A DNA stretch of 64,000 nucleotides from a virus. Lineage: Duplodnaviria; Caudoviricetes. The notes under the pieces are model-generated. The model was not told the DNA's origin. It was given only the letters and a program-made list of their open reading frames with translations, and did not search any database. The position numbers were made by a program, and so were the translations under genes. Within the stretch, counting starts at the first letter, position 1. Every line of letters begins with the position of its first letter. Shown in pieces: positions 35,120 to 60,242 of the stretch. Where the stretch lies: IMG/VR virus record IMGVR_UViG_3300025154_001556; one strand, 5' to 3'.

Positions 35120-35533
35120 TTATAAATCCATATAATCGTTTATATCAATACCTAATTCCGCACAACGCTCTTTAAGTAATAATATGGTTTCTGGTGTTAA
35201 ATCATGGCTGAAATAGTCTATATTGTCTCCATAAACTAATTCTGTTTTACGTGTATTACGCATAGATCTATCAGTTAATATATCTTCAAATTCGTCTAGT
35301 TCTTCTCTAATATCAGTAATCCAAGAACATAAGCTGTCATCATCAGATCTACAATATCTGTTAATTAGCTCTGTTGACAGTGGATTAAGACGTCTAAAAT
35401 AAATCATTAGCGTTCTTGATATTTTATTTTTAGTTTCTTGTGTGTGCAACTGCCCTTTTTTAGATTCGCTTATTGCCATTTTACTAGTGTCACTTAACCT
35501 ATATCCAGTAGGACGACCTCTTTTTTTAGTCAT
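35120..35533 (-). CDS. Putative DNA-binding protein with AT-hook-like and NUMOD3-like motifs
   Basis: KKRGRP; HTQETKNKIS; no nuclease motif seen. Confidence 0.5.
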   Translation of the reverse strand: MTKKRGRPTGYRLSDTSKMAISESKKGQLHTQETKNKISRTLMIYFRRLNPLSTELINRYCRSDDDSLCSWITDIREELDEFEDILTDRSMRNTRKTELVYGDNIDYFSHDLTPETILLLKERCAELGIDINDYMDL

Positions 35534-38631: not shown

Positions 38632-39315
38632 TTATAGGAATGTACCACAACTACCACAGTATTTTATGTAAGACTTCCAACGTTTTCCACAGGAAGGACA
38701 TTGTTTTTTGGTCTTAGTCATTATAGGTGTTTTTACTTCACGTTTAAACTCATCACATCCTTGTAATTTAAGTGTAATAACATATGACTGTGTCTCTAAA
38801 ATACCCGTATGTGTTGTTATAAAATCTTGTTTTGTTGGGGTTCCTTTTACAGTTATACCAGATGAACTATATGTATTAGAAGCACCAGCTACACCTGCTC
38901 TATAACCTATCACGTCATAGCTTGATTTAAAGCCCGACAACTCTTTAATAAAATCTCTATAAGGTATCGATGGTTTTTCAAAAGTATACTCTACCCTAAC
39001 TATGCCATCATCTAGCCTGTCTCCTCTAAAATCTGATATAGCCTTAGTCTTCTGTATAAATCTAAATTTATTATTTACACTTAAATTGTCTAAGGCACCT
39101 TGTAATTCTACTATATCATTAGCCGGAACAACTATCTGGTTACCATTTAGTACAGATAGGCCATCAATATCCACAGATACCACCGCTCTACGTGAATCAT
39201 AGTTTTTTAGTACAATGGTGTAGTCTGAACCAAAAGGAACAGTAACTACACCATCTATTTCTCTAAGTACTTTACCATTGTGTTTTAATATAACTAAAAA
39301 ATTGTTTTTATACAT
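38632..39315 (-). CDS. Conserved-looking phage protein with C-terminal zinc ribbon
   Basis: VPFGSDYTIVLKN..SRRAVVSVDIDG N-terminus; CPSC...CGSC; AGGAGA RBS. Confidence 0.65.
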   Translation of the reverse strand: MYKNNFLVILKHNGKVLREIDGVVTVPFGSDYTIVLKNYDSRRAVVSVDIDGLSVLNGNQIVVPANDIVELQGALDNLSVNNKFRFIQKTKAISDFRGDRLDDGIVRVEYTFEKPSIPYRDFIKELSGFKSSYDVIGYRAGVAGASNTYSSSGITVKGTPTKQDFITTHTGILETQSYVITLKLQGCDEFKREVKTPIMTKTKKQCPSCGKRWKSYIKYCGSCGTFL

Positions 39316-39376
39316 AATGTTCTCCTTTAAAGACCCCCAGCAACGGTCTTGGTTTATACTGGATGGATAATTGTTA

Positions 39377-39858
39377 TTATAAAAGCTTTACTTCTGTTGC
39401 CTGAATACCCTTTTCTGTATTCTTTAAAATAAAACTTACTGGTTGGCCGGCTTTAAGTGTTTTATAGCCGTCCATATCAATACTTGTAAAGTGGATAAAA
39501 TACTCTGCGTCTGGATTACCATCAATCAACACAAAGCCGTATCCGCGGTCATTACTAACATTTTTTTCGAGTTAGTTCGTTACACTAACCCCGCCTATGC
39601 AGGCTGCTTTATGTTTCCATAAAGAAAAGACTATATCAAAATCCTGTTAAGGATTCTCCCCATTTCGGACCACTTGGTCCTACGAGCCTTCGCTCTAGTC
39701 GTTGAACCTTCCTCTTACGAGGCTTGGCTGCTGATTATCTTCGACATTATTCGCTAAGATTTTCCAGCAATTAAAGGAGTTTCGATACATTGTTACCAAT
39801 GTAAAGGGCTCTACATAATGAACCATTTAACTGTTCCGTTAATTCTTTCTTCACTCAT
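39377..39858 (-). CDS. csp: Cold-shock domain protein, 72 aa after splicing: join(39822..39858, 39377..39558)
   Basis: Spliced product MSEERINGTVKWFSNDRGYGFVLIDGNPDAEYFIHFTSIDMDGYKTLKAGQPVSFILKNTEKGIQATEVKLL has RNP1 (RGYGFV) and RNP2 (YFIHF) motifs; GGAG RBS; missed by the ORF track. Confidence 0.93.
39559..39821 (-). ncRNA. Group I self-splicing intron (263 nt, no internal ORF; IA-like with P7.1/P7.2)
   Basis: 5' exon ends in U and intron ends in G. P1 pairs UAAAUGGU with IGS GCCCUUUA (terminal U.G wobble); P10 pairs UCAUUA with exon-2 UAAUGA. Core P AAUUGCUGGAAA, Q AAUCAGCAG, R UCAACGACUAGA, S GAUAUAGUCU. P2 UACAUUG-GUAA-CAAUGUA; P9 CUUUAUG-GAAA-CAUAAAG. Confidence 0.93.
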
Positions 39859-39915
39859 AATTCAAACTCCTTTGGTTTTTATTTGTATAAAGGTAATTTT
39901 AATTTACCCGGTAAA

Positions 39916-40359
39916 TTAACTTAAAAATACTTTTTTCTCTGCCTCTCTTCTATTTACCAAACCAGCAACTACCTTACCGCCGGCTTTTCTCCACAACAAG
40001 AAACTACTTGCTGCCCCTTCATAATCACCTATATTTAGTTTCCTTAATACAGTTGATTTTGAAAAATTACCTAAACCAATGTTATAAGCTAAACTAACCA
40101 AAGCATTAAATTGGTTTTGTGTTACTTTAATTTTTACAAACTCGTTAACACTTTCAGCAAAAGTCGCTACTACATGATTTAGTATTTCAGTAGCACGTTC
40201 TTTAGTTATAGGGGCGTCTGTTAACTTAACTTTTGTACCATCCTCGTAGTAAGTATTACCATAACCTATGGTAGGAATACCTGCTGGACATAGATAAGGC
40301 TTTGAACTAAATCCTTCAAATTTTTTTATTAAATCTAAACCTACTGTATCTATTTTCAT
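39916..40359 (-). CDS. GH24 lysozyme (endolysin)
   Basis: IKKFEG-x-PYLCPAGIPTIGYG catalytic E-x8-C-x5-T; NQFNALVSLAYNIG; GLVNRREAE. Confidence 0.92.
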   Translation of the reverse strand: MKIDTVGLDLIKKFEGFSSKPYLCPAGIPTIGYGNTYYEDGTKVKLTDAPITKERATEILNHVVATFAESVNEFVKIKVTQNQFNALVSLAYNIGLGNFSKSTVLRKLNIGDYEGAASSFLLWRKAGGKVVAGLVNRREAEKKVFLS

Positions 40360-40405: not shown

Positions 40406-41410
40406 TTATAGTTGAGATGCCATTAAACAACCGGCAGCTACACAAGTCATAGGTGAGGCAGCCCTTCTAATTTCACTAATCTTCATAGGTAATGTAATAC
40501 CTGATAACCGCTCCTCAAACATTCTGGTAAAACCCTCCGCCAACGTTAATCCACCTGAAACTATAATAGGCACAGGTTCTCTAAAAATGGGTAGCCTCTT
40601 TTCTTGCTTTTTAAGCTCAAAAGAAATATTTTGCAATACATAATTTATTACAGATGAGTAGTAAACTGCTATAGCCTCTGCTATCTTATCCTTAGGATTA
40701 TACAAATCAATTCCTGACTCTTTTTCTAACTGAATCAATGATGGGGACATATCTAAGGCGGTGCCTACGGAATGGTCAATAAAATCTCCTGATCTTGTAA
40801 CAGAGAATTCAACCAACGGATCACCTTGATGAATTACAGATATGTTAGCCATACCTGCGCCGAGCGATAAAGCAATGCCAGTTAAACCATCATCTAGTAA
40901 TTCTGATAGTCCAATGGCAAATGCCTCATTGATAGGTTGAGGGGAATATCCCTGATCCCTAAAAAACATATTTAACATCTCTTGATGGTACACAATATCA
41001 AACACAGCATCTACTGGTTTAGCTGGAACAGAATAAACTAATGTGTCACTACCATTACCTCTACCCACTAAATTTGAAAGTAGTACCTTTAACATAGGTA
41101 AGCTGTTTTTATCCTTAGGTGATATAACACCATTTAACATTGGTCTGCTGGAACTACAATTACGTTCCATTGCTATGTGAAGAGCGTCCTCACCAATAAT
41201 TAAAAAGTCCGCGTCGTCCTCAATAAAATTAACACCCCTCTTACTTAGGGACGTTTTAATTGATTGTCTATTAACCTCACTTTTTGGCACTAATCTGTAA
41301 AAAGCATCCCGCTCTAATTTGAATATCGGGTTTCCCTCATCATCAACTTTTGCCACACATAAAGAATTTGTACCAACATCCACACCTACACTCATATTAA
41401 TCCCTCTCAT
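40406..41410 (-). CDS. Actin-like ATPase, volactin-like family
   Basis: Phosphate-1 GVDVGT, connect-1 PINEA, phosphate-2 SLGAGMAN, adenosine IVSGG, C-terminal VAAG. Likely start 41395. Confidence 0.85.
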   Translation of the reverse strand: MRGINMSVGVDVGTNSLCVAKVDDEGNPIFKLERDAFYRLVPKSEVNRQSIKTSLSKRGVNFIEDDADFLIIGEDALHIAMERNCSSSRPMLNGVISPKDKNSLPMLKVLLSNLVGRGNGSDTLVYSVPAKPVDAVFDIVYHQEMLNMFFRDQGYSPQPINEAFAIGLSELLDDGLTGIALSLGAGMANISVIHQGDPLVEFSVTRSGDFIDHSVGTALDMSPSLIQLEKESGIDLYNPKDKIAEAIAVYYSSVINYVLQNISFELKKQEKRLPIFREPVPIIVSGGLTLAEGFTRMFEERLSGITLPMKISEIRRAASPMTCVAAGCLMASQL

Positions 41411-41441: not shown

Positions 41442-42416
41442 TTATTCCGGTAGAGATCCCAATAGATCCTTAAGCTTGGCCACTTTACTAGACATTTTCT
41501 CTTGTTGAGCTATCTTAACATCTTTAAAATTTAAATGCGGTGCCATACTATTTTTAGTATCACTTGGATCTATAAAAACCTGTTCCATTTTAGGCCTACT
41601 GCTTTCCGATACAACACTTTTGGTGGTTTGTGAGTCAGTTATCTGTATATTAACCGGAGTGCTTTTTAATGTGTTTATAGTATCATCTTTAATTTTAATG
41701 ATTTCATCTTTGGATTCTAATTTAGAATTAGCAACGGCTAGATCAGTTTTTATTTGGGCCAACTCATTTTTTAAATCAGTTATAGTTGCATTTAATTTAT
41801 CACTATCACCTGAGCTATTGTGTGGATTATTTTTTAAGGATGTTAATTGAGATTTAGTAATTTCAAGTGTATGCCTAAGCTGCTCTACTTCTAGTATTTT
41901 AGGCTCGTATAAATTAATCTGTTTTTTAAGTTCAATTACTTTATCTTCCGCTAAACGTAGCTCTTTGTTTAACTTAGCTGCTGTCTCTTGTAGTAAAAAT
42001 AGCTGTGCTTGGTATTCACTTTTGGTTTCTTCTACTGCTTTGTCAACTAGAACTTTAATTTCTTTATTGGAAACAGCGTCTGTTTTTCCTTCTTCTAGTT
42101 GTCTTCTTAATCTTAGAATTTCTTCTTGTTGCTCTTTTATACGAACACTATGTTTATTTTCCATCTCAGCAGAAACCTGTAATATAACCTTATTTAACTC
42201 AGTATCAAATTCTTCGGCCGTGTATATAGCGGCTGTATTACCAGTAGTAGAGGTAGTGGTTAATTGTCTAGTTAGTAACTCTATTTGGTCTTTAAGTTCT
42301 CGTACAACATAAGAATTTTGCTCTAATTTTTGTCTTTGCTGCAAATCACGTGGTCCAGAACCACTTTTCAGTGGCCTGGACTTATCACGTGTATCTCTTT
42401 CTTTATTGTATTCCAT
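41442..42416 (-). CDS. Long coiled-coil protein
   Basis: 324 aa, E/K/L/Q heptads, short conserved-looking C-terminal tail (RPKMEQVFIDP...VAKLKDLLG). Confidence 0.75.
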   Translation of the reverse strand: MEYNKERDTRDKSRPLKSGSGPRDLQQRQKLEQNSYVVRELKDQIELLTRQLTTTSTTGNTAAIYTAEEFDTELNKVILQVSAEMENKHSVRIKEQQEEILRLRRQLEEGKTDAVSNKEIKVLVDKAVEETKSEYQAQLFLLQETAAKLNKELRLAEDKVIELKKQINLYEPKILEVEQLRHTLEITKSQLTSLKNNPHNSSGDSDKLNATITDLKNELAQIKTDLAVANSKLESKDEIIKIKDDTINTLKSTPVNIQITDSQTTKSVVSESSRPKMEQVFIDPSDTKNSMAPHLNFKDVKIAQQEKMSSKVAKLKDLLGSLPE

Positions 42417-42421
42417 TATAC

Positions 42422-43009
42422 TTATTTTCTTTTATATTCTACTTGATCAATTAAACCATAAGATTTGGCTTCCTCTGAGGACATGAAGTAATCACGATGC
42501 ATATCTAATTTAACTTTATCAATATTTTGACCAGTCATTTCAGAGTACTGGGCTGCCATCTTATCATACATCCTCTTAGTGTGCTCCATGGTTTGGAAAA
42601 TGTCTCCTGCCTTACCTTGTATACCTGTTGATAGCTCATGAATCATAATCTCACAATTAGGTAGAGCGTAGCGTTTACCCTTCGTGCCGGCTGCTAATAT
42701 AAATGAACCAGCGCTTGCCACTTGACCATAACCAATGGTTACAATGTCAGGTTTGATATAGTTCATGGTATCGTAGATGGCGTACATAGCTGTAATCTGG
42801 CCGCCTGGACTGTTGATATACATGTAAATGTCAGAATCAGATGAGTCTGTTTCTAAGAACAGAAGCTGTGCTACAACTAAATCTGCCATATCTTGATTAA
42901 ATTCACCAGATATGAAAATGATTCTGTCTTTAAGCATTCTTGAAAAAGGGTCGTATGCTCTTTCAGATTCTTCTCTACTTGATTTTTCAAAAATATAGGG
43001 TGTTCTCAT
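42422..43009 (-). CDS. clpP: ATP-dependent Clp protease proteolytic subunit
   Basis: DPFSRMLKDRIIF, YINSPGG, catalytic Ser in ASAGS, His in MIHE, Asp in RDYF, AKSYGLID. Confidence 0.95.
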   Translation of the reverse strand: MRTPYIFEKSSREESERAYDPFSRMLKDRIIFISGEFNQDMADLVVAQLLFLETDSSDSDIYMYINSPGGQITAMYAIYDTMNYIKPDIVTIGYGQVASAGSFILAAGTKGKRYALPNCEIMIHELSTGIQGKAGDIFQTMEHTKRMYDKMAAQYSEMTGQNIDKVKLDMHRDYFMSSEEAKSYGLIDQVEYKRK

Positions 43010-45464: not shown

Positions 45465-46745
45465 TTAACATAATTTTTTATCTTGTAGTAAGTCAGCTAG
45501 TGCTATTAGACCACCTCTATGTGAGTTTGGTAGTTCAACATAAGCTAAACTTTTATGTGGTAGAATTCTTAATAATTTTAGTAAGCCTGATTCAGAAGGT
45601 CTTACAACATTGTATGTTTGTGCTAAATCACCTAATAGTATTAGTTTACTTCCTTTATTAGCCCTTGATAATATCATACTCATAGTATCTATATCTATAA
45701 GTTGGCATTCATCACAAATCATTATGTCTGATTCTAATATACTCATACCTTGAATTACATTTATTGGCACAGCTTCAAATTTATCTTGAAAGTATCTATC
45801 CTTAACTATATCATACTTTATACTATTTTGGTCTTTACTTGATCCTTGATTTCTGGTATTAGCATATAGATAATATAATGCACTTAATATACCAGCAAAC
45901 CACGCTTCCATTTTTGCTTGTTTATCACCGGGCAAGAACCCTATATCGTATTTATGGCTTATACCAATTGGAGGTCTGGTGATAAATATTTTATTGTCAC
46001 TGTTGCAAGATAAGGCATAGGCTGTGCTTAGTAAAGTTTTCCCTGTTCCCCATTTACCAGTAATTAAAACACCGTCAGCTTCTGTCATAGCGTATATAGC
46101 ACATATTTGGTATATATCCAGCGCTTTTAGTTTATTACCCTCCACAACAACTTCTCTATACTCAGGCATATTATCTATACGTGACACTGTGCCTTTAATA
46201 GGGTTAGTAGCATATACGTAAGCATTATTTAATATAACAAACTTCCAGCATTCAGTGTCTATGTCTAATTGTAATTCTATATTAAAATCATATAAACTGT
46301 AATTTTGTAAGTAAGTAAAGTTCTCTGGTAGATCTTTGATATCTAAATGTATGTATGGTTTAAATATACCGTTTGGTATAATATCATATAATACAGTGTC
46401 CACACCCTTAGTTGCCGCTATAACTGACATAGACAAATCTTTTGTGGCTAAGTCGGCTTTATTTTTTATAGCCGCGTCAATTATTAAAGTATCGTTTGTT
46501 TTTAATTCCTCGTTGTCAACAGCCAACACTAATCTGTTTGGGTGTGCTTCTCTAAAAGCAACTATTTCATAGATTGCTGTTCTAGCACTATAAGATAAAT
46601 CAGGATTAAATTTATGTTTATCAAGTTCTTTCAATACTGTTAATGGAACTATTACTTTTTCATATTTATTTAGCGACTTAAATAATATTTTAGGGTCATC
46701 TAATAATATATTTGTATCAATTAAGATATTTTTATTTTTTAACAT
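45465..46745 (-). CDS. phoH: PIN-PhoH family protein (PhoH2/YlaK-like)
   Basis: N-terminal PIN ILIDTNILL...VLKELD...NDTLII; P-loop GKWGTGKT; ITRP; ICDECQ; LLGDLAQ; SHRGGL. Confidence 0.88.
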   Translation of the reverse strand: MLKNKNILIDTNILLDDPKILFKSLNKYEKVIVPLTVLKELDKHKFNPDLSYSARTAIYEIVAFREAHPNRLVLAVDNEELKTNDTLIIDAAIKNKADLATKDLSMSVIAATKGVDTVLYDIIPNGIFKPYIHLDIKDLPENFTYLQNYSLYDFNIELQLDIDTECWKFVILNNAYVYATNPIKGTVSRIDNMPEYREVVVEGNKLKALDIYQICAIYAMTEADGVLITGKWGTGKTLLSTAYALSCNSDNKIFITRPPIGISHKYDIGFLPGDKQAKMEAWFAGILSALYYLYANTRNQGSSKDQNSIKYDIVKDRYFQDKFEAVPINVIQGMSILESDIMICDECQLIDIDTMSMILSRANKGSKLILLGDLAQTYNVVRPSESGLLKLLRILPHKSLAYVELPNSHRGGLIALADLLQDKKLC

Positions 46746-48309: not shown

Positions 48310-49161
48310 TTAAAGCATAATAAGTGATTTTAATATATCTAACAAAGTCATTTTCTCATTTAAACCAATAGTTTTTAGATAATTTTCTCCAACTATCCAA
48401 CGTTCCTTTGAATAAAACCTATCTTTATATATTATTTTAACAAATACAATATTATCTGGGTATATCCTTATTATGTACATATCACCATCATCTAGTATAG
48501 TACTTTCCCTAAATGTGGTTTTACTTACTGTATCCCCTTGTTTAAAACTTTTAAATTCTTTTTCACAATAAGCTACTTTTTCTTGTTCAAATTTTAGATG
48601 CTGCTTGTAACTAAAATATTTAGCTGTTGTATTTGTTGTTGTAGGTAATATAAGCATAAAACTTATTATAGCTATCCAACCTTTAAAAGAAAGGCCTAAA
48701 ACCCATCGTTTAATCCTATATAAAATACGTTTATCGCTGAGTTTAGATACACTAGTAGTTGGTATAATAATATTGTCAGGAGATGCTTCTCCTCTTAGAT
48801 GTTTATTGGCTATAACTATAAATGCCCTAGCATCAGGAGGTTTTACCATAATCATTTCTCTTGGTACTTTATGAAATTCAACCAATTCACTTACTGTATC
48901 TTCTGGCAAGCTTCTAGATAATATAAGGCATTTATCAGGATCTGCACCACCTCTGCCCACAAGCTCTAAACCGCTTTCTTTATTTTCTAGTATTGTATCA
49001 ATGATATATAAGTCGTAGTCGTACCTCATCATACGTTCTCTGGCTTCTTTTAAACTACTAACTGAATGTACTACACAGTCGTATGGTGCCAGTAATCCTT
49101 TGTATAGTTGTATCATAGCTAAACTTTCTTCAGCTATCAGTACTGCCTTTTTATTGGCCAT
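48310..49161 (-). CDS. Atypical response-regulator receiver domain fused to a TM helix and C-terminal extracytoplasmic domain
   Basis: VLIAEE, DLYIID (phospho-Asp), MVKP; hydrophobic WIAIISFMLILP. Confidence 0.7.
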   Translation of the reverse strand: MANKKAVLIAEESLAMIQLYKGLLAPYDCVVHSVSSLKEARERMMRYDYDLYIIDTILENKESGLELVGRGGADPDKCLILSRSLPEDTVSELVEFHKVPREMIMVKPPDARAFIVIANKHLRGEASPDNIIIPTTSVSKLSDKRILYRIKRWVLGLSFKGWIAIISFMLILPTTTNTTAKYFSYKQHLKFEQEKVAYCEKEFKSFKQGDTVSKTTFRESTILDDGDMYIIRIYPDNIVFVKIIYKDRFYSKERWIVGENYLKTIGLNEKMTLLDILKSLIML

Positions 49162-49174
49162 AGTTATAACCCCG

Positions 49175-50251
49175 TTATTTAAATATAATATCTAAATCAT
49201 AATTACAGGCTTTTATAACCGCCAAACAAGCCTCTACGACTTTATCGTCGTATAGTTTACCAGAACCTTTTACTATTTCTTCAATGGCCACAGTAACACC
49301 CAAAGAGGCCCTATATGGTCTATGTGAAGCCATAGCCTCTACTACATCAGCTACACTGATTATTTTAGCTTCTATGGATATTTGGTCACCCCTTAAACCA
49401 TTAGGATAACCAGAACCATCTAGCCTTTCGTGATGTTGTAATACCATACGGGCTATTGGTGCTTCAAAAGGAATATCACTAATTATATTGTATCCTTCTA
49501 TGACATGTTTTTTTAATAATTTAAATTCTGTTTCACTTAATCTAGTTGGTTTAACTAATAACTCTTGCGGAACATAGAATTTACCTATATCATGGAGCAT
49601 ACCTGCCAGTTTTATATGTTCGATTTGGGATTCATCTAGGCCATAATACTCGGATATTTTTATTGCTAACGCCGTTACGCGTTTTTGGTGCCCAGCTGTG
49701 TATGGGTCACGTATCTCCATAGTTTTTGATAAAGCTTCAACAGTTTTGTATAAAACACTACTTAAATCTTTGTTAGCTACTGCTAGTTTTTCATTTGTTG
49801 CTGCTAGATTATCTGTTCTTTCTTTAACCAATTTTTCTAGTTGTTGTTGATACATCTGGTTATCTCTTACCAAGTCATGTTTTTCTAGGCATTGAGTTAC
49901 AGAATGTTTTAAAATTTCTAGTGTTATTGGTTTGGTTATAAAATCACAAGCACCTTTTCTTAAAGCATCTACCACAAACTCATTACAAGTGTTACCTGTT
50001 ATTATAATAATTTGTGATGGTGGATATAGTGCTTTTATTTTATCCATTAAATCTAAACCCATAGCATCAGGAAGACTTATGTCTAATAATACTATTGGTG
50101 GTGAGTATTTTTTAAAGGCGGCTATACCTTCAACTCCCTTAGTAGCATTAATTATATTGTCGAACCCAATTACAGATAACATTGTACTTATAACAGCCAA
50201 TATAGATTGATCATCATCTATTACAAGTATAGGTTCTTTTATTCTAGTCAT
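49175..50251 (-). CDS. Response regulator with HD-GYP cyclic-di-GMP phosphodiesterase domain (RpfG-like)
   Basis: REC: ILVIDDD, LLDISLP, ITG, FITKP. HD-GYP: RDPYTAGHQKRV, LHDIGK, QHHERLDGSGYP, VADVVEAM..HRPYR. Confidence 0.93.
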   Translation of the reverse strand: MTRIKEPILVIDDDQSILAVISTMLSVIGFDNIINATKGVEGIAAFKKYSPPIVLLDISLPDAMGLDLMDKIKALYPPSQIIIITGNTCNEFVVDALRKGACDFITKPITLEILKHSVTQCLEKHDLVRDNQMYQQQLEKLVKERTDNLAATNEKLAVANKDLSSVLYKTVEALSKTMEIRDPYTAGHQKRVTALAIKISEYYGLDESQIEHIKLAGMLHDIGKFYVPQELLVKPTRLSETEFKLLKKHVIEGYNIISDIPFEAPIARMVLQHHERLDGSGYPNGLRGDQISIEAKIISVADVVEAMASHRPYRASLGVTVAIEEIVKGSGKLYDDKVVEACLAVIKACNYDLDIIFK

Positions 50252-59159: not shown

Positions 59160-59248
59160 GGGTTTAAGTGAAGGGCAAACTTGTCGTAAGGCAAGGACGC
59201 AAAACTATGGGCCCTCATTATGAGGGCCGCCAAGTTACCAAACAAACC
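59160..59248 (+). promoter_or_regulatory. c-di-GMP-I (GEMM) riboswitch-like aptamer
   Basis: AAGGGCAAAC-UUGUC-GUAA-GGCAAG-GACGCAAAAC-UAUGG-GCCCUCA-UUA-UGAGGGC-CGCC-AAGUUACC. It shows the GGCAAA junction, a GNRA-capped P2, GACGCAAA, a P3 hairpin and the 3' GUUACC, then an SD and ATG at 59268. Confidence 0.8.
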
Positions 59249-59267
59249 GAATTATAGGAGAATTACC

Positions 59268-60242
59268 ATGAAGAAATCAATCGTTATTTCCGCAATCATT
59301 TCTCTTATTTCTACTCTTTCTATTTCATCAGCACAGGGCGAGCTCATCGATGGGCGCTACACTGTTCTGGATACCACCACCAACTACGAGTGGATGAAAC
59401 ATCCCTTCGTATACACTAACTGGTATGATGGTAAGGAACAGTGTGAAGACCTCGTGCTGGATGGTCATGATGACTGGGTTATGCCTTGGCCTGCCCATAT
59501 GAAAACCATCAAAGGCGTTATCCAGTACTTGGCCTACAACTATATGTTTTATCATACCATCAGGGAGTATTCAGCTACGGCGGACTACTCATACAACATT
59601 GATACTGGTGTTATGGGTGTTGTGTCCAAATACAATCTTGGAAACGTTCGTTGTATGCGCGATGCTTCGGCTGATATGGCTGAGGTTATTACCAGCGTAA
59701 CTATCCAGAAAACCGGTTACTACACTATGGCCACTACTATGGCTAATGTAACTGGTATGGTATCGGCATTTGTTGATGGTGTTATGGTTGCTTCTTACAA
59801 TACCGATTATATCAGCGGCCCTGTTGGTATTGGCAGCCTCGTAGCCGGCCAGAATCTGGAAATCACAGTAAATGGTTCAAAAGCGGAGGGAATTGAGGAG
59901 TTGGACTGGCAGAGTTGGAATATGACCTTTTCTGCCGGCGACATTGAAATCTATGTCGAAGACCCGCCCATGCCCACGAGTGGCGTACAGACAATGGTGG
60001 TAGAGGAAGAGGAGCTTCCCCCACCAGCAATCGTTAATGTAAAAGTTAACAAAGCACAGATACTCAACAGTAAGAACAAGAGTACTCTGACGTTGGTATT
60101 GGACGTTCCTGCGCAGATTACCCTGGAAGACGGACCTACCGATTTTGTGGTTTTACTGTACACAAATGGTTCGGATACTGCTTACATGGGTAATACCGAA
60201 ATGAGCCATAAGGGTAAAGGGAATATCATTTCCAATAAGTAG
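59268..60242 (+). CDS. Secreted protein with DUF1566 (Lcl C-terminal)-like domain
   Basis: Signal peptide MKKSIVISAII...AQG; TVLDTTTNYEWMK, WYDGKEQCEDL.LDGHDDWVMP, VRCMR. True start after AGGAG at 59268. Confidence 0.75.
   Translation: MKKSIVISAIISLISTLSISSAQGELIDGRYTVLDTTTNYEWMKHPFVYTNWYDGKEQCEDLVLDGHDDWVMPWPAHMKTIKGVIQYLAYNYMFYHTIREYSATADYSYNIDTGVMGVVSKYNLGNVRCMRDASADMAEVITSVTIQKTGYYTMATTMANVTGMVSAFVDGVMVASYNTDYISGPVGIGSLVAGQNLEITVNGSKAEGIEELDWQSWNMTFSAGDIEIYVEDPPMPTSGVQTMVVEEEELPPPAIVNVKVNKAQILNSKNKSTLTLVLDVPAQITLEDGPTDFVVLLYTNGSDTAYMGNTEMSHKGKGNIISNK

Follow-up and report, generated by a model that had tools for sequence, protein, structure and literature searches.

A probable selfish group I intron in the cold-shock protein gene of a large uncultured phage

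The cold-shock protein gene (csp) examined here lies on the minus strand of a 64-kb stretch of phage DNA (hereafter the window, meaning that whole stretch) and occupies positions 39377-39858, where its coding sequence is interrupted. This raises the question of what the interrupting element is, whether the gene would still yield its protein, and whether the element is a selfish one or a device that controls Csp synthesis. An earlier note on this DNA had proposed that a group I intron splits the gene and that its splicing could respond to temperature or to Csp itself.

Excision of the Insert Restores a Complete Cold-Shock Protein

The ribosome-binding site AAAGGAG (39867-39873, minus strand) is evident in the sequence and precedes the csp ATG by 8 nt. 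Exon 1 (39822-39858, minus strand; ATG ... AAA TGG T) comprises 12 codons and the first base of codon 13 (Phe), and its encoded N-terminus, MSEERINGTVKW, agrees with that of uninterrupted homologs. Exon 2 (39377-39558, minus strand; TT AGT AAT GAC CGC GGA ... TAA) encodes the RNP1 motif (RGYGFV), the RNP2-like FIHF, and the remainder of the OB fold. When 39559-39821 was excised in silico and 39858-39822 was joined to 39558-39377, a CspA-type protein of 72 aa was obtained, MSEERINGTVKWF|SNDRGYGF..., as had been predicted in the earlier note. This product matched the Pfam CSD domain (PF00313) over residues 7-71 (1.3e-19; 70.3 bits against a threshold of 27) and the PHROG family 'cold shock protein' (1.1e-15), and both RGYGFV and YFIHF were found in it.

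The position of the junction was examined by enumerating the frame-restoring alternatives within +/-6 nt. Three of them obeyed the rule of a U at the exon end and a G at the intron end, and only the junction 39822/39558 yields WF-SNDR-GYGF as it stands in uninterrupted alleles. A protein search found uninterrupted 72-aa Csp homologs that are 97-99% identical (P0002 and P0003), together with many more at 70-87%. Every uninterrupted allele that was compared reads KWFSNDRGYGF across the junction, which is the predicted ligation product; the exon junction is thus settled as far as sequence allows. In the nearest empty site (L228), the two insertion sites described below, marked here by carets, read AAA TGG T^TC AGT AAT GAC CGC^GGG TAC.

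The intronless alleles in related phages, which the earlier note had proposed to look for, are also syntenic wherever their surroundings could be read. The shared gene order is ClpP, x, Volactin, lysozyme or a 135-aa gene, csp, a 227/245-aa gene and, further on, dNMP kinase and HD; in the window, the lysozyme gene abuts csp. The contig of P0003 carries ClpP, x, Volactin, lysozyme, and csp, and P0006 is located on a 308-kb contig. In the window, the genes for Volactin (Pfam, 9.6e-62), a long coiled-coil protein, and ClpP follow one another at 40406-41410, 41442-42416, and 42422-43009 (minus strand), and this block is kept in all related phage contigs (L017, L018, L227, and L056).

The Insert Has the Structure of a Group I Intron, Probably of the IA Type

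A search with the Rfam model Intron_gpI (RF00028), which the earlier note had recommended, gave a minus-strand match at 39830-39607 that covers the full model (1-253 of 253) and scores 88.2 bits, as compared with the gathering score of 50 bits (E 3.5e-21). It is the sole Rfam intron match in the window. Together with the empty alleles, this full-length match supports the claim that a group I intron splits the phage csp gene at the junction given above. The intron (39559-39821, minus strand) is 263 nt long and ORF-less, and its minimum free energy is -77.1 kcal/mol (z = -4.1 relative to shuffled sequences).

For the structural analysis, four introns (those of the window, L011, L054, and L003) were aligned over 355 columns and folded by RNAalifold, which recovered P1, P2, P3, P4, P6, P7.1, P8, P9, and P9.2. 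Double changes that keep the pairing were seen at 32 of the 51 RNAalifold pairs. The P7 pseudoknot was counted separately, and two of its five columns are compensatory.

All elements lie on the minus strand. In P1 (39803-39828), the last seven exon nucleotides and intron nt 1-2, 5'-AAAUGGU|UC, pair with the guide GAGCCCUUU (intron nt 11-19); the helix is short and contains one U.C mismatch. Its splice-site U.G pair (39822/39809) is conserved in all four aligned introns. The P2 hairpin (39786-39803) is capped by a GUAA loop, and six of its seven pairs show compensatory changes. The catalytic core, P3-P8, was placed at 39629-39779 by the Rfam match and covariation. Within it, compensatory exchanges are found in P3 (39779-39774 with 39661-39656), in P4 and P6 of the P4-P6 stretch (39769-39706), and in P8 (39654-39641), while P7 (39700-39696 with 39633-39629) consists of 5 bp. 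Covariation supports P7.1 (39695-39684; GAGC-GAAG-GCUC) in part, and the columns of P7.2 (39680-39667; GGACC-AAGU-GGUCC) align too poorly for such an analysis. The peripheral 3' domain (39571-39624) is formed by P9 (39624-39607; GAAA loop), P9.1 (39603-39590), and P9.2 (39589-39571), of which P9 and P9.2 covary. No covariation support was found for P5, P7.2, and P9.1 in this small four-intron alignment. The intron ends in the omega-G at 39559, and all seven homologous introns likewise end in G at a frame-restoring junction. Judged from its P7.1/P7.2 architecture, the csp group I intron appears to be of the IA type, an assignment that does not distinguish IA1, IA2, and IA3.

A candidate P10 pairs GUAAUGA of exon 2 with UCAUUAU of the intron, and it is equalled by 18% of shuffled exon sequences. 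Against shuffled exon sequence, P10 was not significant in four of five alleles and borderline in L011 (5% of shuffles). Of the elements listed in the earlier note, P1 with its U.G pair, the P/Q/R/S cores, the P7.1/P7.2-type hairpins, P8, the GNRA-capped P2 and P9, and the terminal G were located, whereas its P10 is no better than chance.

An in-frame UAG occupies intron nt 9-11 (39811-39813, minus strand), so that unspliced RNA would be read as ...KWFIM*, a peptide of 15 residues. This agrees with the earlier proposal that an early in-frame stop blocks translation of the unspliced RNA. The stop in frame starts at intron nt 4-9 in all seven interrupted alleles examined.

Homologous Introns Are Found at the Same Site in Other Phage Loci

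Reading of the sequence 5' of N-terminally truncated csp matches in viral and metagenome scans revealed homologous introns at the same site (site A, between the first and second bases of the Phe13 codon, just 5' of RNP1) in L011 (330 nt), L054 (267 nt), L227 (268 nt), and L056 (995 nt, ORF-bearing). The csp proteins of these four loci are only 63-67% identical to that of the window. Meanwhile, the 263-nt site-A intron of L035 is identical to the window copy. In silico splicing of each site-A allele gave a full-length Csp, and the csp-specific guide GAGCCCUU is common to the site-A homologs. In place of the P7.1/P7.2 region, L056 has an ORF of 238 aa with its own ribosome-binding site, and the encoded protein matches the LAGLIDADG_2 homing endonucleases (1.8e-21), indicating that the lineage includes a classical mobile intron.

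An nhmmer profile built from the four-intron alignment detected the homologs with E values ranging from 1e-24 (for the two halves of L056) to 1e-71. Rfam RF00028 at E <= 0.01 misses the introns of L011, L054, and L056, which were recognised by eye and by the profile at E 1e-24 to 1e-70; scans with this single model thus under-count phage group I introns.

Short sequence patterns were searched for as well. The pattern CGGGGT...ACTCGAA matched the L003 contig alone. A stricter pattern combining guide and core matched two viral contigs and none of 185,579 bacterial and archaeal genomes; as it requires an exact match, diverged copies would escape it. The looser pattern TGGTT-N(3-12)-GAGCCCTTYAT gave at least 120 viral-contig matches, of which only the L011 contig was real according to nhmmer and the others were rejected.

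A 166-nt contig from wastewater (run X18, record 16) aligns with window positions 39779-39943 with four mismatches and contains the unspliced exon 1/intron junction. A relative with a site-A intron therefore also occurs outside groundwater.

A Second Insertion Site and Free-Standing Endonuclease Genes

A related intron was found at another position of csp, designated site B, in L003 (234 kb) and in the short groundwater contigs L020-L025. With its 264 nt, it reaches 86 bits with Rfam and shares 64% identity with the intron of the window. Site B lies 14 nt downstream of site A, at the Arg17/Gly18 codon boundary where RNP1 starts. Site A is empty in L003 and L020-L025, and site B is empty in the window. 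A screen of N-terminally truncated protein matches for a third position met only genes without an interruption, so that two sites are described here.

In L020-L025, a gene for a free-standing HNH endonuclease of 290 aa is located between the lysozyme gene and csp. L227 also carries a free-standing HNH endonuclease gene (HNH_2, 2.2e-9) immediately upstream of csp, and the nuclease domains of the L020 and L227 proteins are related (36% identical). In the window, there is neither an endonuclease ORF inside the intron nor a free-standing endonuclease gene adjoining csp. The closest candidate in the window is a 137-aa ORF with the NUMOD3 motif at 35120-35533 (minus strand), about 4 kb away, in which no nuclease domain was detected.

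Several minor observations concern these genes. The NUMOD3-only ORF of the window is possibly a homing endonuclease remnant. Past its nuclease domain, the HNH ORF of L227 (1716-2702) meets no stop; in another frame, it continues through csp exon 1 and for about 160 nt of the intron, an extension that may be fortuitous read-through or may point to a recent insertion. The intron-less 308-kb relative (L017/L018) carries a NUMOD3+HNH endonuclease gene at 1919-2560, just upstream of Volactin, with no counterpart in the window. The csp/Volactin neighbourhood is a hot spot for free-standing endonucleases.

The Interrupted Genes Keep the Marks of Selection and, Possibly, of Homing

Codon differences between the window and L020 amount to 13 synonymous and 1 nonsynonymous, and those between L054 and L056 to 14 synonymous and 3 nonsynonymous; L011 was left out of the codon comparison with the window because of indels. 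The protein encoded by exon 2 is 100% identical between the window and the L020-L025 alleles. These counts indicate that the interrupted csp genes are intact and under purifying selection. Since selection at the protein level on an interrupted gene requires splicing, the counts argue well, if indirectly, for splicing in vivo. Apart from the 166-nt wastewater contig described above, four RNA-flagged runs matched just the universally conserved core of the intron (39696-39740), the matches coming from introns of other organisms. As they contain no spliced joint, these runs are uninformative for splicing either way.

The nucleotide differences between the window and L020 are not evenly spread. Around the two sites, within the first 84 nt of the coding sequence, 15 nt differ, whereas the remaining 135 nt contain 2 differences (Fisher p = 1.6e-5); identity over the downstream flank is 97.3%. 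Such clustering would fit co-conversion of the flanking exons during separate homing events.

Relation to Known Phage Introns

The nearest relatives at the DNA level are introns of Herelleviridae phages (vB_BceH_LBC2 and SapYZU04), which blastn aligned at 68-73% identity over about 205-220 nt and which nhmmer detected with E values of 2e-51 and 9e-38. They lie in structural-gene regions, indicating that the lineage is not tied to csp. The subgroup-IA introns of Herelleviridae (Staphylococcus Twort/K-like and Bacillus Bastille-like phages) resemble the intron of the window in being about 250 nt long and ORF-less, in having P7.1/P7.2, and in interrupting protein-coding regions. They differ in residing in virion structural genes near the tail-sheath gene, in another phage family with other hosts; moreover, SapYZU04 has several introns in tandem, whereas the window has one. 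In the SapYZU04 sequence (L002:2481-3648), the intron profile matches strongly at three places and weakly at a fourth, all in tandem in the unannotated gap between orf93 and the 'capsid protein' gene. This gap resembles a structural gene with several interruptions, such as phage Twort has.

The td intron of phage T4 belongs to subgroup IA2, is self-splicing and about 1 kb long, and encodes the GIY-YIG endonuclease I-TevI. The effects of RNA chaperones (StpA, S12, and IF1) on splicing have classically been read out with this intron. It shares with the csp intron its group I class, its location in a conserved phage gene, and an in-frame stop near its start; unlike the csp intron, td carries its own endonuclease and interrupts a gene of nucleotide metabolism, whereas the intron of the window is ORF-less and its host gene encodes an RNA chaperone.

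In collaborative homing, an ORF-less intron is paired with an adjacent free-standing endonuclease, as described for psbA/F-CphI of S-PM2 and for the DNA-polymerase introns of T7-like phages (PMC3984707, PMC6083498). The alleles with an HNH gene upstream of csp (L020-L025 at site B and L227 at site A) are similar to these systems. The window differs from them in that no endonuclease gene adjoins the intron, and the csp segment differs in offering two alternative insertion sites.

In the huge 'Jug' phages of the gut, group I introns number about 18 per genome and are spread over many genes, and their splicing was validated by metatranscriptomes (PMC12880540). Like the phage studied here, they are large and uncultured, and they combine short group I introns with stand-alone HNH, LAGLIDADG, and GIY-YIG genes; their host genes (terL, nrdD, and DNA polymerase), habitat, and clade are different (PMC12880540). 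The main text of that paper (2026) does not mention csp as an intron host. The host genes named in a 2014 review include polymerases, ribonucleotide reductases, terminases, recA, and flagellin (PMC3984707). In full-text searches, no publication was found that names csp as a host of group I introns, the host genes in a 2025 intron database lying outside their coverage. The earlier remark that a csp host gene had not been seen reported is consistent with these literature searches (PMC3984707, PMC12880540).

Splicing, Homing, and the Alternative Explanations

Taken together, the data make it very probable that 39559-39821 (minus strand) is a functional, ORF-less, selfish homing group I intron of apparently IA-type architecture in a phage csp gene. 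We infer the splicing chemistry, the endonuclease specificity, and the route of mobility from the intron family, and the process would run as follows. The primary transcript would fold so that P1 presents the exon-terminal U in the U.G pair. Exogenous guanosine would attack at this site, after which the freed exon 1 would attack past the terminal G, and the ligation of AAAUGGU to UUAGUAAU would give the message for the 72-aa Csp. The UAG at the start of the intron would halt entering ribosomes and keep the ribozyme core clear of them. At the DNA level, the intron lineage would target the most conserved stretch of csp, and neighbouring free-standing HNH endonucleases could mobilise the introns in trans by collaborative homing. 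The window copy, being without an endonuclease, would represent a late, ORF-less stage of the homing cycle.

The interruption could in principle have arisen during assembly, with the intron of another genome joined into csp by the assembler, because the sequence comes from a metagenome and reads of other organisms collect on the conserved core of the intron. The source phage is a large, uncultured one of groundwater and soil metagenomes; its genome is at least 165 kb, and in the runs carrying the window stretch the contigs reach 165-216 kb. The genes in the window include those for the large terminase, a phage lysozyme, ClpP, the actin-like Volactin, dNMP kinase, HD proteins, and a PIN-PhoH protein. 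The region 39300-39950 was recovered in one piece and with zero differences in contigs of 2.7-57 kb from four runs in four studies (39300-39937 in X1), three of the four contigs covering the csp region whole. The 263-nt intron of L035, a JGI assembly, is identical as well, and homologous interrupted alleles occur in other datasets. No intron-less joint was found in the DNA-run contigs of the source populations, in which rare variants drop out. As the intron DNA is contiguous and identical in four independent assemblies, the interruption is not an assembly artefact, and we regard a chimera as practically out of the question. Hardly more credible is a decayed remnant that has ceased to splice and has left csp a pseudogene producing only the 15-residue peptide. 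The mismatch in P1 and the missing endonuclease ORF would suit such decay, but the Rfam model is matched from end to end, the core is intact, the helices are kept by compensatory changes, and both exons are intact, with a ratio of synonymous to nonsynonymous differences of 13:1 relative to L020, which is likewise interrupted. We therefore consider this remnant very unlikely.

A regulatory role deserves somewhat more attention, although we also judge it improbable. The efficiency of splicing would then be set by temperature or by Csp, and the intron would control Csp synthesis, either as a cold switch or through an autoregulatory loop. The idea draws on the ability of Csp-family proteins to melt RNA structure, so that the product of the host gene could act on its own intron, on the promotion of T4 td splicing by other RNA chaperones and by the OB-fold protein IF1 (PMC3017892, PMC3984707), and on the several independent insertions in one small gene. 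Against it, the intron is absent from the syntenic alleles with 97-99% identity (P0002 and P0003), and L003 and L020 carry a different intron 14 nt away instead. The introns are associated with homing endonucleases (LAGLIDADG in L056, HNH in L020 and L227), and their closest relatives reside in unrelated structural genes. The clustering at the RNP1 stretch is what is expected of endonucleases that target conserved sequence, and an early in-frame stop is general to phage and bacterial group I introns rather than specific to csp (PMC3984707). The polymorphism in presence and site, the links to endonucleases, and the relatives in structural genes can thus be understood without a dedicated switch. 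Co-option of the intron, in which splicing has come to depend on Csp and temperature and repeated invasion of csp is tolerated or even favoured, seems to us similarly doubtful. A selfish homing intron remains the reading that we prefer.

With this intron, csp, a gene of 72 codons for an RNA chaperone, joins the phage genes colonised by group I introns. The alleles form a series within about 14 nt of RNP1 (empty, site A with an ORF-less intron, site A with a LAGLIDADG intron, and site B), which further splits according to whether each intron type has an adjoining free-standing HNH gene. Such a series lends itself well to work on the homing cycle, on collaborative homing, and on co-conversion in large phages that are uncultured. 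Meanwhile, a chaperone gene with its own intron offers a cheap and direct way to ask whether a phage Csp affects the folding of a ribozyme. For annotation, it should be noted that gene callers misread csp intron loci as ORFs of 56-75 aa that start within the intron (P0014 and P0015).

Other Features of the Window

Two features of the window relate to cyclic di-GMP. A c-di-GMP-I-GGC riboswitch aptamer was detected at 59165-59243 (plus strand; Rfam 66.6 bits, E 1.5e-13), and it overlaps the start of a 340-aa ORF (59220-60242) with a weak match to an Lcl_C-like domain. A response-regulator/HD-GYP protein (HD_5, 2.8e-39; 49175-50251, minus strand) is encoded beside a second receiver-domain protein (48310-49161, minus strand). 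The riboswitch and the HD-GYP protein suggest that the phage may sense and degrade the c-di-GMP of its host.

The PIN-PhoH protein of the window is a fusion encoded at 45465-46745 (minus strand), with matches to PhoH (3.4e-25) and PIN_4 (2.5e-14).
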